A DNA stretch of 64,000 nt from Sulfitobacter sp. (GTDB taxonomy: Bacteria > Pseudomonadota > Alphaproteobacteria > Rhodobacterales > Rhodobacteraceae): NCBI GenBank assembly GCA_051251995.1, contig JBPOFF010000001.1, positions 355,190 through 419,189 on the forward strand, written 5' to 3'. A program made the translations under genes and the position numbers. The notes under the pieces are model-generated. The model was not told where the DNA came from. It ran no database searches and saw only the letters and a program-made list of their open reading frames with translations. The first letter of the stretch is position 1. Every line of letters starts with the position of its first letter. Of this stretch, positions 40,173 to 46,732 are shown in pieces.

Positions 40173-40919
40173 ATGGATAGCATTTTCAAAGCTCTTGCCG
40201 ATCCGGCCCGCCGCACCCTGTTGGACGCCTTGCGCCAACGTGACGGGCAGACCTTGCAAGACCTGACAGAGCTGCTGGAAATGACCCGCTTTGGCGTGAT
40301 GAAGCACTTAGGCGTGCTTGAGAACGCCGGGCTGGTGGTGACCAAGAAACAGGGGCGGTTCAAATTTCATTACCTGAACGCCGTCCCCCTGCAACAAACC
40401 ATAGATCGCTGGATTGAGCCGATGCTTAGTAAACCAGCGGCGCGAGCGGTGTTGACCCTAAAAGCAACCCTCGAAAGGAACGACGATATGACCAAACCTG
40501 ATTTCATCATGCAGACATTCATCCGCTGCACCCAAGACGCACTTTGGGATGCGCTGAGCAATCCTGACAGCATGGCCGCCTATCATTTCATGTGCGAACG
40601 CGTCGAAGGTGACGCAAAAGTTGGCGGCGAATTGACCTGGATTTTACCCGATGGCAACAAGATGCTGTCGCAACGCCCGACCAAAGTGACCCCAAAGACC
40701 CGGATAGAAGCAACATTTGAGCCCCATTTTTTCGGGCCAGACGCGCCCGGATCGCACATGGCGTTTATCATTGAGCCCCAAGGCCCGAACTGCAAACTCA
40801 CCATCGAACATTACGACATCCCCGCAGGTCAAGAAGGCGTCTCGGAAGGATGGGCACGGCTTGCGGCATCGCTCAAGTCTTGGCTTGAGACCGGAACAGC
40901 CATGAAAACGGCGATGTAA
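40173..40919 (+). CDS. ArsR/SmtB regulator fused to an SRPBCC (START/AHSA1) domain
   Basis: FKALADP.RR.LLD.L, TRFGVMKHL.VLE.AGLV; C-terminal TFIR.T...LW.AL..P...GW.R....LKS.LETG. Confidence 0.9.
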   Translation: MDSIFKALADPARRTLLDALRQRDGQTLQDLTELLEMTRFGVMKHLGVLENAGLVVTKKQGRFKFHYLNAVPLQQTIDRWIEPMLSKPAARAVLTLKATLERNDDMTKPDFIMQTFIRCTQDALWDALSNPDSMAAYHFMCERVEGDAKVGGELTWILPDGNKMLSQRPTKVTPKTRIEATFEPHFFGPDAPGSHMAFIIEPQGPNCKLTIEHYDIPAGQEGVSEGWARLAASLKSWLETGTAMKTAM

Positions 40920-40940
40920 GCAAATAGAAAGAACAGATTG

Positions 40941-41351
40941 ATGACACCTGAACTCACAACCGAACTGGGCATTTTAACCTGCCTATGCGTGCTCGCGGCA
41001 TCGCTTTGGATTCCCTACATTATTGGGGTCTCAAAAGAGCCATCCGCCGCCGATAACTTCACCCGGCCCAGCGATTTATCCAAAGTACGGCCTTGGGTGC
41101 ACCGCGCCCACCGTGCGCATCTGAACCTGCTAGAGCAACTTTTGCCCTTCGCCATTCTGGTGCTGATCATGGACCGGGTTGATGGCTATTCCGCGCTGAC
41201 CTTCTGGACCGCAATCACGTTCTTTTGGATACGTGTCGCCCACGCCATTGGCATGATCAGCGGATTTGCCAAGATGCCGCTGCGTCCGATCCTGTTCAAT
41301 GCGGGCTGGCTGTGCTGCCTGATCATGGCCTATGCGGTTTGGTCGGCCTGA
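40941..41351 (+). CDS. MAPEG family membrane protein
   Basis: W..RA.RAH.NLLE.L.PFA, R..HA. Confidence 0.88.
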   Translation: MTPELTTELGILTCLCVLAASLWIPYIIGVSKEPSAADNFTRPSDLSKVRPWVHRAHRAHLNLLEQLLPFAILVLIMDRVDGYSALTFWTAITFFWIRVAHAIGMISGFAKMPLRPILFNAGWLCCLIMAYAVWSA

Positions 41352-41488
41352 AAACCACTTTTGTCGAACAATGGCGCGGCGCTCCTTGCTGCGCCATTGA
41401 CAACATCATCCCTCGCGGCCAAATACCCCAAACACATAACCCGCAACCGGGCGTCTCGTAGGCGCCAAACCGACGAGGAGTGCCGCAC

Positions 41489-43435
41489 ATGGCCCAAGTC
41501 TCCCTTACCCTTCCCGATGGCAATATACGGTCTTATGAGGCCGGGATCACCGCTGGTGAAGTTGCCAATGACATCTCCAAATCTTTGGGCAAAAAGGCAA
41601 TCAGCGCCACCGTAAACGGCGCGCACTTTGATCTGGCTTGGCCGATTGAAGGTGATGCCGACATCGCCATTCACACCATGGCGGATGAAGACCAAGCCAA
41701 TGAACTGGTGCGTCACGATCTGGCGCATATCATGGCCCGCGCAGTGCAAGAAATTTGGCCTGACACACGCGTTACCATCGGCCCGGTGATCAAAGACGGC
41801 TGGTATTATGACTTTGACCGCGCTGAATCCTTCACCCCCGAAGACCTTGGGCTGATCGAGAAAAAGATGAAGGAAATCATCAACAAACGTGATGCCGTGC
41901 GTACCGAGGTTTGGGACCGCGCCCGCGCGATCAAGCATTACGAGGACTTGGGCGAGGCCTATAAAGTTGAATTGATCGACGCGATCCCCGGGGATGAACC
42001 CCTGCGCATGTATTGGCATGGTGACTGGCAGGATCTGTGCCGTGGTCCGCACTTGCAACACACCGGGCAAGTACCTGGTGACGCGTTCAAATTGATGTCG
42101 ATTGCCGGTGCCTATTGGCGCGGCGACAGCGACCGCGCCATGTTGCAACGCATCTACGGCGTGGCCTTTACCGGCAAGGAAAAGTTGCGCGCGCATTTGA
42201 ACATGCTTGAAGAAGCCGCCAAACGCGACCACCGCAAGCTGGGCCGCGAGATGGACCTGTTCCACATGCAAGAAGAAGCGCCCGGTCAAGTTTTTTGGCA
42301 TGCAAACGGCTGGTCAATCTACACCACTTTGCAAGATTACATGCGCCGCAAACAACGCGCTGCGGGGTATGTTGAAGTGAACACACCTCAGGTTGTGGAC
42401 CGCAAACTGTGGGAAGCATCCGGTCATTGGGACAAGTACCAAGAACATATGTTCATCGTTGAGGTTGACGAAGACCACGCCCGTGAAAAATCAATCAACG
42501 CCCTGAAACCAATGAACTGCCCCTGCCATGTGCAGATTTTCAACCAAGGTATGAAATCTTACCGTGATCTGCCGTTGCGCATGGCCGAATTTGGATCGTG
42601 CAACCGCTATGAACCATCGGGCGCGTTGCACGGCATCATGCGGGTGCGTGGCTTTACGCAAGATGATGGGCATATTTTCTGCCGTGAAAATCAGATCGAA
42701 GCGGAATGTGCTGCATTCATCGACTATCTTTCCTCCGTTTACAAAGATCTCGGGTTTGAAAAGTTTGAGATCATGTTCGCCACCCGTCCCGACAAGCGTG
42801 TGGGGTCGGAAGAAAGCTGGGATCATGTCGAAAATGCGCTCGAAAGTGCGATCAAGTCAGCGGGTCATCCCTATACTTTGGACGCAGGCGAAGGTGCGTT
42901 CTATGGGCCAAAGCTCGATTTCAAACTGACCGACGCGATTGGCCGCGAATGGCAATGTGGCACGTTTCAAGTTGACCCCAACCTGCCAGAGCGGTTGGGC
43001 GCGCAATTTGTAGGCGAGGATGGGGCCAAACATCGCCCCTATATGTTGCATCGTGCCTGTCTGGGCTCTTTTGAGCGGTTCATCGGTATCCTGATCGAAA
43101 ACTCGGCAGGTAAACTGCCGTTCTGGCTGGCCCCGCGTCAGGTTGTTGTGGCCTCTATCACCTCTGAGGCCGACGATTACGTCTCGGAAGTGGTTGAAAC
43201 CCTGCGCGCAGCTGGTGTGCGGGTCGAGGCCGACATCCGCAACGAAAAGATCAATTATAAGGTGCGCGAACATTCTGTTGGCAAGGTGCCAGTGATCTTA
43301 GCCGTCGGCGCGCGGGAGGTTGAGGAAAAAACCGTCTCTGTCCGTCGTTTGGGTGAAAAACAAACCTCCGTTCAGGCGCTGGCTGATGTGGTCACCGCAT
43401 TGAAACTTGAGGCGACCCCACCTGATCTGCGCTGA
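41489..43435 (+). CDS. thrS: Threonine-tRNA ligase
   Basis: TGS domain, [45 protein letters not shown]. Confidence 0.99.
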
Positions 43436-43459
43436 TTGGGTTTGTAACAATTCTCACGG

Positions 43460-43485
43460 GGGCGGCCAATGTGCCGCCCTTTTTT
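43460..43485 (+). terminator. thrS intrinsic terminator
   Basis: GGGCGGC-CAATGT-GCCGCCC-TTTTTT. Confidence 0.85.
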
Positions 43486-43658
43486 GTGCATTGTAACAAT
43501 AGATCACGGATTTCGCCGTCTATATTTCGAGATTCAGCGCTAAAACGCTCAATTTCTGACGGGATCGTGAAACACCTGCTCGTGAATGGTGTTAACGGAC
43601 CTGTAATGCTTTATATATCTCATCAGACTTGATGCAGACCAACCAAAGGATATGAAAT

Positions 43659-43964
43659 ATGTCTACCACTCTTAAATCTTTTGCAATCGCTGGTGCAGTG
43701 GCCGCAGCCATGACAGCGCAGACCACCACAACCGCCGAAGCAGCCTCAAAAGAGAAGTGCTATGGCGTGTCTCTTGCAGGCGCAAACGATTGCGCCGCGG
43801 GTCCCGGCACCACATGTGCAGGTACGTCTGTGACTGACTATCAGGGCAACGCATGGACACTGGTTGATGCAGGCACTTGCGCCGAAATCGACCTGCCAAA
43901 AATGGCGGACGGTACTGAGCGTACTGGTTCGCTGGAAGCGCTGGACCGTGATCTGCCGGCATAA
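43659..43964 (+). CDS. bufA: Bufferin-type RiPP precursor (DUF2282, BufA1-like)
   Basis: Sec signal, then EKCYGV..AG.NDC....[18 protein letters not shown] with four Cys. Confidence 0.9.
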
Positions 43965-43987
43965 ACGCAAGCACAGAAACATCAGCT

Positions 43988-44007
43988 TTGGGCGGTGCGC
44001 TGCCCAA
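43988..44007 (+). other. Stem-loop after the precursor gene (possible differential mRNA stability element)
   Basis: TTGGGCGG-TGCG-CTGCCCAA. Confidence 0.5.
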
Positions 44008-44045
44008 GGCCAAATCCTAAGCTCGCAAAGACCGGAGGGCATCCG

Positions 44046-44894
44046 ATGCGCGACAATCCCCCCCGCTTTGACACCCTGCCAAACACCCCCGGCGTTGGCT
44101 ATAAACCTCAACATTTCACCCAATTGCTTGCCGACCCCGGACCCGTTGAGTGGATCGAGGTGCATGCGGAAAACTATATGGGCGACGGTGGACGCCCCTT
44201 GGCGCAACTGCGCGCCCTGTCGGAACGATTGGCCATATCCGTACATGGTGTAGGCCTGTCCATTGGCGGCGAAACCCCTCTTGACCGTGACCATCTTGCC
44301 CGCCTCAAACGCTTGTGCGATTGGATCAACCCCGCCAGTTTCTCCGAACATTTAGCATGGTCTACCCATGGCTCCGAGTTTCTGAACGACCTGCTGCCCC
44401 TGCCCTATACCGAACAGACCCTATCGCGGGTTGCAGACCATATTGACCAAGTCCAGCAGACGCTGGGACGGCAAATGTTGCTTGAAAATCCGTCAAGCTA
44501 TCTTGTTTTTGCTGAATCTACCTTGTCTGAAACCGACTTTTTGCAACAGCTTATCCACCGAACAGGCTGCGCACTCTTGCTGGATGTCAATAATGTGTTT
44601 ATTTCATCCACAAATCTGGGCCTCAGCCCGCAGGATTACATCGACGCCTACCCAATAGACGACGTCCGCGAAATACACGTCGGCGGTCACGACACTGACC
44701 AAGACGATGCAGGCGCACCTTTGTTAATCGACAGCCATGGCAAACCTGTGGTCGATCCGGTTTGGGACTTGCTTGACTATACATTGGCCCAAACAGGCCC
44801 ACAGCCTGTTTTGGTTGAATGGGACAATGATGTCCCCGATTGGCCAGTTCTACGTGCAGAGGCGGACCGTGCGGCGGTGGCCTTAGCGCTATGA
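44046..44894 (+). CDS. bufB: DUF692 multinuclear non-heme iron oxidase (MNIO, BufB-like)
   Basis: [60 protein letters not shown]; start MRDNPP at 44046. Confidence 0.95.
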
Positions 44895-45652
44895 CCACGC
44901 AATCTGAATTTCGTGCCGCCCTTTTAGACGCTGGCCAACCTGTTCCCGAGGGATTGTTGGACGGGGGAAATGCCCCCGCTGGACGGCGCTATGCGGTTTA
45001 TCGCAACAACGTGACCGTGTCATTGATTGAAGCGATGAAAACTGCCTTTCCCTTGGTCCGCAAACTGATTGGGACCGCAAATTTCGACGCACTTGTGCCG
45101 ATGTACATCCGTGCCCATCCCCCCTCATCACCACTGATGATGTTCTATGGTGCTGAATTCCCCGAATTTATTGCAGGCTTTGGGCCGCTCTCCCACATCG
45201 GCTATCTGGCTGATGCTGCGCGTTTCGATTTGGCCATGCGCAGGTCCTACCACGCCGCGGACGCCGCCCCGTTTGACCCATCCCGTTTGCAAGCAATGGA
45301 CGAAGACGCGTTGATGCAGGTCACTTTCTCTCTTGCACCTGCAACGCAGATCATCCGATCAAGCTGGCCGCTATATGATATCTGGCGTTTCAACTTCGTA
45401 AAAGGTGCACCCAAGCCAAGCGCAACAGCCCAAGATGTCTTGATCACCCGGCCCGAGTTTGACCCAGAACCACATCTACTGCCCAAGGGTGCCGCCGAAT
45501 GGCTGGAGCAACTGAATAACGGTCAGACGTTTGCAACCGCAATAGACGCGGCCACAACAAGCGCGCCAAATTTTGATCTCAGTGCCAGCCTGACCCTTGC
45601 CCTAACCACGAACACATTTTCGGATTTGATCCCCTTGAAGGAAAATACATGA
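44891..45652 (+). CDS. bufC: DUF2063 partner protein (BufC-like)
   Basis: [13 protein letters not shown]....FP...KLIG...F; ATGA overlap with the DUF692 gene. Confidence 0.9.
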
Positions 45653-46200
45653 CTGCCCTCATATCGCTTTACTCGACCCTAGCTCATCGTTTGGCCGCTG
45701 CGGACTGGTTGATCCCAACCTTGGCGCGCTTTGTGTTTGCAGCCGTGTTGCTGGTCTATTTCCTGAATTCCGGTATGACCAAACTGGGCGACGGCATTTC
45801 CGGCCTCTGGACCCCATCCGCTGGCGCATATGCACAAATTTTCCCAAAGGCGTTTGAGGCCGTTGGTTATGACAGCGACGCGTTGTCGATCTTTCACCGT
45901 TTGGTTGTTGTGGCCGGCACGTTGGCTGAATTCATTCTGCCCACATTGATTGTGCTTGGGTTCCTCACCCGTCTTGCCGCATTGGGCATGGTCGGGTTTG
46001 TCATTGTGCAATCGCTGACAGATATTTACGGCCACGGCCAGGCAAGCGCGTTGGGGGCTTGGTTTGATAGGTTCGCAGATGCACCCATTTTAGATCAACG
46101 CGCTTTTTGGGTGTTTGTGCTTGCTGTCTTAGTGATCAAGGGGGCCGGACCACTCTCCTTTGATCGGGCTCTTCAGCCGCGAGTTGCTGCGTCTAGATAA
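45649..46200 (+). CDS. bufD: DoxX family membrane protein (BufD-like)
   Basis: LAR......YF..SG..K, E.ILP.L...G..TRLAALG, GAG.LS.D. Confidence 0.88.
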
Positions 46201-46217
46201 AATTGGGAAACAAGCTT

Positions 46218-46250
46218 AGCTGAAGTTAAAGCAATGCATTAACTTCAGCT
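46218..46250. terminator. Long inverted repeat between convergent doxX and arsC-like genes
   Basis: AGCTGAAGTTAA (46218-46229) / TTAACTTCAGCT (46239-46250), overlapping the arsC-like stop. Confidence 0.65.
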
Positions 46251-46546
46251 TCTATCTCTTTACTCCAAGACAGAAAAAGGTGATTATCTACCGCAATAAG
46301 TGGACGTTTCATCAATGCTGGATACTCCAGAATAAGCGCCCGTGGATCTCGTTGCCGATCCGCCTCGTCTAGCCCGCGCCATGTGGTTGATCGGGTGTTT
46401 AGCAATGCCGCCCCAAACTGGGTTAATGCGCGATCCAATATATCTTCAGGCAAACCAGTCTCGCGCACGTCAATCAACTGTGCAGACGACAAAGCCTTGA
46501 GCGCCTTGCGGCAGGTGTCGCAATTTTTCAAACCATAAATCTTCAT
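46226..46546 (-). CDS. ArsC/Spx (YffB-like) family protein
   Basis: MKIYGLKNCDTCRKA, LLN.RSTTWR, P.LMKRP; start 46546. Confidence 0.9.
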   Translation of the reverse strand: MKIYGLKNCDTCRKALKALSSAQLIDVRETGLPEDILDRALTQFGAALLNTRSTTWRGLDEADRQRDPRALILEYPALMKRPLIAVDNHLFLSWSKEIEAEVNALL

Positions 46547-46732
46547 AAATTCTGCCTCATTTTTCATCGCCACCAGTCGAGAACCCTACTGTTCTCAAAC
46601 GACTTTGACGCTTTCCCTTGATTTTTCAACCAACCGAACAATCTTTTCTCTTATGGTCTGTTAACCATTTTACGATGGTGCGGGCCACCCTGCATATGCA
46701 GGCAAGTGAAAGACAACGGAAAGGGCAAAAGC

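Follow-up and report, generated by a model that had tools for sequence, protein, structure and literature searches.

The bufABCD operon at positions 43659–46200 on the (+) strand of a 64,000-nt stretch of Sulfitobacter sp. DNA (contig JBPOFF010000001.1; hereafter, the window) is, very probably, a complete and working Buf1-type bufferin gene cluster whose promoter is preceded by a double palindrome that replaces control by the sigma factor SigF and its partner NrsF. The gene cluster itself is a new member of the described bufferin family and is ordinary; a preliminary description of this DNA had already read it as a bufferin-type operon for a metal-buffering peptide in a marine roseobacter, and both the curated family models and the BufA1 names carried by its homologs support that reading. 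Our analysis drew on the source genome (completeness 100%), on 80 related buf loci (from Sulfitobacter, Tateyamaria, Roseobacter, Marivita, Cognatishimia, and others), and on 151 genomes that sample the bacterial family across 150 genera.

The gene upstream of the operon is thrS (threonyl-tRNA synthetase; 41480–43435, (+) strand), the stop codon of which lies 223 nt before bufA. Because thrS ends in an intrinsic terminator (43458–43481, (+) strand; 9 pairs, 7 of them G-C, then TTTTGTG), bufA needs its own promoter within 43482–43658. An alignment of the thrS-bufA spacers of 75 syntenic loci revealed one strongly conserved block, at 43553–43592. The element found there is 35 bp long and consists of two tandem T[G/C]AC-N6-GT[G/C]A 14-bp inverted repeats. 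Specifically, palindrome 1 (TGAC-N6-GTGA; 43557–43570, (+) strand), a candidate operator half, is followed 15 bp later by palindrome 2 (ACAC-N6-GTGA; 43572–43585, (+) strand) and then by a conserved T and G at 43587 and 43589 of the same strand. In an ungapped alignment of 66 copies of the element (alignment A1), the near-invariant columns read T.AC-N6-GTGA..CAC-N6-GTGA.T.G, and columns T5, A7, and C8, together with G15, T16, and A18, of palindrome 1 were invariant. These columns show the mirror symmetry that one would expect of a site for a dimeric DNA-binding protein, and the element is not coding, since its conservation is not 3-periodic. It starts ~93 nt before the bufA ATG in nearly all loci, and the exact pattern GTGANNCACNNNNNNGTGANTRG was present in 61 of the 75 syntenic loci; overall, 61–66 of the 75 retain the element at this distance. 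Farther downstream lie GTTAAC (43591–43596, (+) strand), at the position of the SigF −35 GTAAC of relatives, and a semi-conserved candidate extended −10 (TG-C-TTTATATATC; 43607–43619, (+) strand) with a putative transcription start. The upstream region contained no match to the sigma-70 consensus, and a search of Rfam with 43300–46400 returned no match at E-values up to 1.

The element is specific to this location in the genome. A profile built from it (profile R1) matched the window with 35.1 bits (E-value of 5.5e-8), which was the only strong match in the genome; with a position weight matrix, the element scored 47.8 versus 14.4 for the next-best match, a rejected site inside the isocitrate dehydrogenase gene. 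Single palindromes, in comparison, were not enriched genome-wide (285 found versus ~259 expected). Across the family-wide sample, the exact 23-nt pattern occurred once each in 23 of the 151 genomes, in 18 of them directly before bufA (DUF2282), while the reversed control pattern occurred in none of the 151. When the profile matches were joined to the DUF2282 and NrsF tables for each genome, the element preceded bufA in 52 of the 93 NrsF-less genomes versus 0 of the 18 NrsF-bearing ones (Fisher p = 3e-6).

The counterpart of this pattern is the absence of the SigF/NrsF system. The preliminary description had noted that no sigF/nrsF pair adjoins the operon, which holds, the flanks being thrS and an ArsC-family gene, and had proposed looking for a distant ECF16/NrsF pair (ECF, extracytoplasmic function); none exists, as the whole genome contains neither NrsF nor a SigF ortholog. 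The best match to SigF had 25% identity (42 bits), versus 43–49% identity (129–159 bits) between true SigF orthologs of three genera in the family. The sequence GTAACC-N16-CGAA is likewise missing here, so that none of the marks of a Caulobacter-type SigF/NrsF-controlled operon was found; a SigF-type promoter motif occurred in 1 of the 75 syntenic loci, which is not that of the window. The lack of the pair had been taken as unusual, but most of the DUF2282-bearing genomes share it: 111 of the 151 family genomes carry DUF2282, and 93 of those have no NrsF. Conversely, NrsF scored above the cut-off in 23 of the 151 genomes, 18 of them with DUF2282 and ~15 with the two genes adjacent. A published survey, which calls bufABCD the core, also reports the sigma/NrsF genes for some Buf1 clusters only (PMC12452194). 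The suggestion of different regulation, by comparison, was borne out, in that the SigF-type promoter of NrsF-bearing relatives (GTAAC-N16-CGAA) is replaced here by the double palindrome and an AT-rich −10-like region.

The two types of control region are linked by the palindrome. The site of Caulobacter SigF is GTAACC-N16-CGAA (PMC3511200), and all 10 of the NrsF-bearing relatives examined have GTAAC-N15-17-CG(A/T)(A/C) before bufA. Eight of these 10 also carry one palindrome 5–6 nt upstream of GTAAC, a feature that we did not find described in the Caulobacter SigF paper (PMC3511200). In the window, the position of the SigF −10 CGAA is taken by the AT-rich, TG-preceded stretch at 43607–43619. 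We then scanned one genome per species for TCAC-N6-GTGA-N4-7-GTAAC-N16-18-CGAA; the scan is qualitative, since chance alone should yield several hundred matches in the collection as a whole. Among the matches listed (L116–L195), ~68 of 80 belonged to Alphaproteobacteria, including the genera Rhizobium, Bradyrhizobium, Mesorhizobium, Bosea, and Brucella. The matches listed lie 45–90 nt before genes that, named by reading their translations (no family search), encode DUF1223 proteins, a peroxiredoxin-like protein, secreted hydrolases, MXKDX-repeat proteins, BufA1- and BufA2-like precursors, and an ECF sigma factor. The palindrome therefore has the appearance of a long-standing partner of SigF-type promoters, and the lineage of the window appears to have kept and doubled it and to have lost the sigma factor. 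As separate observations among the same matches, the genes for small secreted Met/Lys/Asp-rich "MXKDX repeat" proteins came from Rhizobium, Brucella, Agrobacterium, Phyllobacterium, and Paracoccus, and the BufA2-like precursors, with six Cys, came from several metagenome-assembled genomes (MAGs).

Tentatively, and with somewhat less than even confidence, we propose that the double palindrome serves as operator for a transcription factor not yet described that took over bufferin control in roseobacters without SigF/NrsF and that, via a single palindrome 4–7 bp upstream of the −35, is also an unnoticed SigF (ECF16) metal-stress co-regulator across Alphaproteobacteria (Rhizobium, Bradyrhizobium, Mesorhizobium, Brucella, and Rhodobacterales). 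In our main reading of the locus, bufA has its own promoter behind the thrS terminator, with the palindromes centered ~45 and ~60 bp upstream of the AT-rich −10-like box. A candidate dimeric transcription factor would bind the palindromes and control an otherwise weak promoter of the housekeeping-sigma type, and the same factor would co-regulate SigF-dependent promoters in relatives.

Several points weigh against this picture. At the sensitivity used, the element was not found before bufA in 41 of the 93 NrsF-less genomes and is therefore not universal. With a spacing of 15 bp, the two palindromes face different sides of the helix, an arrangement uncommon for dimers that bind cooperatively. 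The half-site layout TGAC-N6-GT(C/G)A recalls the CusR/CopR copper box, but control by CusRS/CopRS was rejected, as no CusS/CopS-type kinase scored above the TIGR01386 cut-off in the 151 genomes. Lastly, as regards the product of the operon, the assignment of thiooxazole versus oxazolone-thioamide comes from the literature and not from the sequence here.

It is unlikely, though the best placed of the alternatives, that the element is instead the site of an alternative sigma factor (ECF-type or other) that replaced SigF, or the slowly decaying remnant of a SigF promoter. The element does lie where the promoter must be, GTTAAC stands exactly at the SigF −35 place, 5 nt after GTGA, conserved TGTAACA boxes farther upstream look like the SigF −35, and three further ECF-like sigma genes exist in the genome. 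However, the two blocks are 15 bp apart from center to center and 20 nt separate T.AC from CGT, neither distance fitting the 16–17-nt spacing of ECF or sigma-70 promoters, while the mirror symmetry described above is that of a site for a dimeric protein. Moreover, conservation of the −35-like GTTAAC is confined to the window's own subgroup, and a relic would not remain invariant over dozens of genera. No similar motif was seen upstream of the two ECF sigma loci inspected, nor for the three ECF-like sigma loci of the genome taken together (RpoE-ChrR; sigma with a vWA anti-sigma; EF-hand protein, sigma, and periplasmic sensor).

The TGTAACA boxes deserve a separate description. Box 1 (43443–43449, (+) strand) follows the thrS stop codon and precedes the thrS terminator, and box 2 (43492–43498, (+) strand) lies ~58 nt upstream of the palindromes; both are conserved in related loci, and only two TGTWACA pairs 20–90 bp apart exist in the genome. 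We rejected the boxes as a SigF promoter, given that there is no conserved CGAA at N16 and that the box occurs in both orientations. NrsF-bearing relatives have TGTTACA at the relative place of box 2, where it would be the −35 of a divergent sigF promoter, and box 2 may be either a relic or a working site. The two boxes flank the variable hairpin of the thrS terminator, and in some relatives box 2 reads TGTTACA and is fully complementary to box 1. In one genus (locus L103, G084:C9:4500-8000, positions 1705–1753), a ATTGTTACA box and the double palindrome were seen between bufA and bufB; there, the promoter would drive bufBCD only, or bufA has been moved.

Outside the bufA context, most matches to the element in the 151 genomes fell within genes (TldD-like, LuxR-type, amidohydrolase, transposase, multicopper oxidase, and ChrR genes) and were rejected as chance. 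Three off-site copies, all intergenic and in other genera, looked meaningful, preceding a DsbD_N protein, an operon of two Cys-rich secreted proteins of unassigned family and SCO1/SenC, and an unknown secreted protein, respectively. Exact copies of the 23-nt core were located at ~2969 in L087 (G040:C28) and at ~3030 in L090 (G138:C5). One exact core lies ~70 nt upstream of the gene for a DsbD_N-domain periplasmic protein, and the second precedes the SCO1/SenC operon, in a genome without DUF2282. The intergenic copies are compatible with periplasmic copper/thiol handling and too few to define a regulon.

All genes named in the preliminary description are present at 43659–46200, as confirmed by the list of open reading frames (ORFs), the sequence, and the Pfam and NCBIfam models, and its proposed check with DUF2282, DUF692, DUF2063, and DoxX models placed all four proteins above the cut-offs. 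On the (+) strand, bufA (43659–43964) encodes a 101-amino-acid (aa) precursor (PF10048, DUF2282, 81.7 bits over residues 31–79; cut-off of 22.4), and its ribosome-binding site is AAGGA at 43646–43650. It is followed by bufB (44046–44894), encoding a 282-aa MNIO (DUF692) bufferin maturase (PF05114, MbnB_TglH_ChrH, 346 bits); by bufC (44891–45652), encoding the DUF2063 partner protein (PF09836, 88 bits; cut-off of 27.2); and by bufD (45649–46200), encoding a DoxX-family membrane protein (PF07681, 30.6 bits; cut-off of 23.6). The start of bufB is the ATG at 44046, which stands behind GGAGG and matches the homologs, while the ORF list began at GTG 43995. The described coupling of bufB, bufC, and bufD by ATGA is evident from the sequence as overlaps at 44891–44894 and 45649–45652. 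The DUF2282 locus is the only one in the genome, and no second (buf2) cluster was found.

As described earlier, BufA is a four-Cys precursor with a signal peptide. Read from the sequence, the Sec signal peptide spans residues 1–28 (Lys6, a 14-residue hydrophobic stretch, and the motif AEA|AS, with putative cleavage at the bar), which leaves a predicted mature core of 73 aa. Cysteines 34, 45, 53, and 74 lie within EKCYGV, NDC, TCAGTS, and GTC, respectively, and this four-Cys core pattern and its spacing were common to 97 of 150 BufA family representatives (50% identity clusters). The 27-residue tail after the last Cys (Cys74) had been thought to suggest different processing; the tail is indeed there, but nothing in it points to such processing, as in the 97 representatives a median of 22 residues (quartiles of 17 and 31) follows Cys-IV, and many of them end, like BufA here, in GSLxxLxRDxPA. 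Judged by these sequences, the tail is a feature of the protein family, with no hint of special processing. BufA has thousands of relatives. Those nearest to it, at up to 98% identity, are from Sulfitobacter and related MAGs, and NCBI/UniRef gives several close homologs the name "BufA1 family periplasmic bufferin-type metallophore". A PDB search with BufA gave no match.

The spacer between bufA and bufB holds the stem-loop previously reported to follow the precursor gene, a GC-rich hairpin at 43985–44010 ((+) strand; 11 bp, two G-U, no U tract, −18.1 kcal/mol). Taken alone, this hairpin is unremarkable, with 14% of shuffled spacers reaching −18. Equivalents of ≤ −12 kcal/mol were nevertheless found in the bufA-bufB spacer of 78 of the 80 related loci, with sequences that differ between loci and a median of −21.9 kcal/mol versus −13.1 for shuffles. 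The hairpin is likely a partial terminator or RNA stabilizer that sets a high precursor-to-enzyme ratio; it would keep the precursor mRNA in excess over the enzyme mRNA.

BufB matched NF050167 ("MNIO family bufferin maturase") with 371 bits (equivalog cut-off of 310). The iron ligands of MbnB are His54, His90, Glu133, Asp163, Asn166, His192, Asp208, His210, and Glu239 (PMC9060507), and the aligned positions in BufB are H67, H102, E147, D180, N183, H211, D229, H231, and E258. All nine are kept, and the claim that the metal-ligand motifs of the DUF692 enzyme are intact is thereby upheld. The nearest solved structure to BufB is 3BWW, a close HvfB relative (E-value of 6e-44).

By analogy with the Caulobacter system (PMC11626156), from which both the bufferin chemistry and the metal specificity are inferred through homology, BufA would be made as the 101-aa precursor, and in the cytoplasm the iron enzyme BufB and its substrate-recognition partner BufC would turn Cys45 and Cys53 into 5-thiooxazoles. 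Sec export with removal of the 28-residue signal peptide and formation of a Cys34-Cys74 disulfide would then yield a 73-residue periplasmic mini-protein that chelates excess copper. BufD (DoxX) would be an accessory membrane protein; in Caulobacter, it is dispensable for modification (PMC11626156).

That the peptide is made as predicted but serves another metal, or redox or sulfur stress, is improbable, although such a role would explain why the copper-responsive SigF/NrsF control was dropped. The published survey notes MerC fusions, suggests roles for other metals, and takes doxX as a pointer to other stresses (PMC12452194), the conserved convergent neighbor is a thiol-redox-type ArsC/Spx-family gene with a CxxC motif, and buf regulation here clearly differs from the SigF/NrsF type. 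Yet the only characterized bufferins respond to and protect against copper (PMC11626156). Two of the intergenic off-site copies of the element, those before the DsbD_N protein and before an operon ending in the copper chaperone SCO1/SenC, fit periplasmic copper/thiol handling, and in other Alphaproteobacteria the palindrome occurs together with the SigF-type promoters that precede Met-rich MXKDX-repeat and BufA2-like genes. Least probable is that BufB makes oxazolone-thioamide pairs, isomeric with 5-thiooxazoles, like those of methanobactin and those initially assigned to HvfA/oxazolin in a 2024 paper (PMC11252979): BufB does match the HvfB (238 bits) and MbnB (58.6 bits) models, but it passes the bufferin-maturase equivalog cut-off alone (360 and 325 bits being required for the other two), and later preprints, in their titles and abstracts, favor 5-thiooxazole for both bufferins and HvfA.

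The order thrS-bufABCD-arsC (convergent)-csp was conserved in ~75 of the 80 related loci (Sulfitobacter, Tateyamaria, Roseobacter, and others), with BufA identities of 73–94%, and this shared gene order marks the locus as old, vertically inherited, and chromosomal. Our search of the literature on DUF2282 in roseobacters found only a genome-mining mention; a bufferin-like cluster was already reported in a member of the order by a 2026 genome-mining paper (PMC13706104). The ArsC-family gene (46226–46573, (−) strand) converges on bufD, 25 nt downstream of it. Its product, an ArsC/Spx-family protein with a CDTC (CxxC) motif, keeps this position in ~72 of the 80 loci and also in locus L064, which lost the upstream thrS; a functional link, perhaps as a thiol reductase, is possible. 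Upstream of thrS, positions 40173–41351 encode a fusion regulator (ArsR helix-turn-helix/AHSA1, SRPBCC) followed by a MAPEG-family membrane protein, a pair that is conserved in roughly a third of related loci. The outlier loci without upstream thrS (L017, L050, L060, L062, and L067) carry inserted GGDEF-EAL, histidine kinase, TetR, or YHS-like genes and yielded no consistent regulator candidate. In two of them (L017, 3612–4121; L050, 5398–5898), a small secreted protein with GYD.VSY...YGGYC (YHS/TRASH-like by eye) is encoded just upstream of bufA, and a histidine kinase or TetR gene lies nearby.

Taken by itself, the cluster contributes little: bufferins have been described and form a very large family of RiPPs (peptides that are synthesized ribosomally and modified after translation), the proteins found here are already named publicly, and three quarters of the family's genera carry the cluster. 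The addition made here is to define another kind of control region and to link it evolutionarily to SigF promoters, a modest but testable lead. Within one bacterial family, the same operon occurs with two mutually exclusive control regions, either a SigF/NrsF promoter or the double palindrome, and the shared palindrome, which also accompanies SigF-type promoters in rhizobia and their relatives, links the two. The element offers a 40-bp bait for the regulator and a means of finding out which signal (copper, thiol, or redox stress) triggers a periplasmic metallophore in abundant marine bacteria.

Among known systems, the operon most resembles buf1 of Caulobacter vibrioides (bufA1B1C1D1, CCNA_03363-03366; PMC11626156), which has the same four genes in the same order: a DUF2282 precursor with a Sec signal and four Cys, an MNIO, a DUF2063 partner, and a DoxX protein. 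DUF2282 proteins are 80–120 aa long, and the bufferin core is 68 aa in Caulobacter (PMC11626156) versus 73 aa here. Caulobacter buf1 adjoins sigF-nrsF and is expressed from a GTAACC-N16-CGAA promoter under copper stress, whereas here these genes and this promoter are absent, and the double palindrome and an AT-rich −10 stand in the place of the SigF promoter. More broadly, the SigF (ECF16) promoters of Alphaproteobacteria have TCAC-N6-GTGA 4–7 nt upstream of GTAAC-N16-18-CGAA, while the window has two palindromes and no SigF −35/−10. The gig operons (gold-induced genes) are cited as the same kind of four-gene cluster (PMC11626156); compared by description only, those of Cupriavidus metallidurans and Legionella pneumophila have other regulators and are induced by gold and copper. 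HvfABCX of non-typeable Haemophilus influenzae shares the MNIO, the DUF2063-type partner, the DoxX-like protein, and a secreted Cys precursor, but that precursor has repeated EGKCG motifs and is not DUF2282, while the one here is a DUF2282 protein. Membership in the HvfABCX/oxazolin group was rejected, as BufA has no EGKCG repeats and the HvfB model on BufB (238 versus 360 bits), the HvfC model on BufC (35 versus 142 bits), and the HvfX model on BufD (23 versus 80 bits) all scored below their cut-offs. Membership in the methanobactin group was rejected as well, since BufB reached 58.6 of the 325 bits set for MbnB and the precursor is a 101-aa DUF2282 protein rather than a short MbnA.

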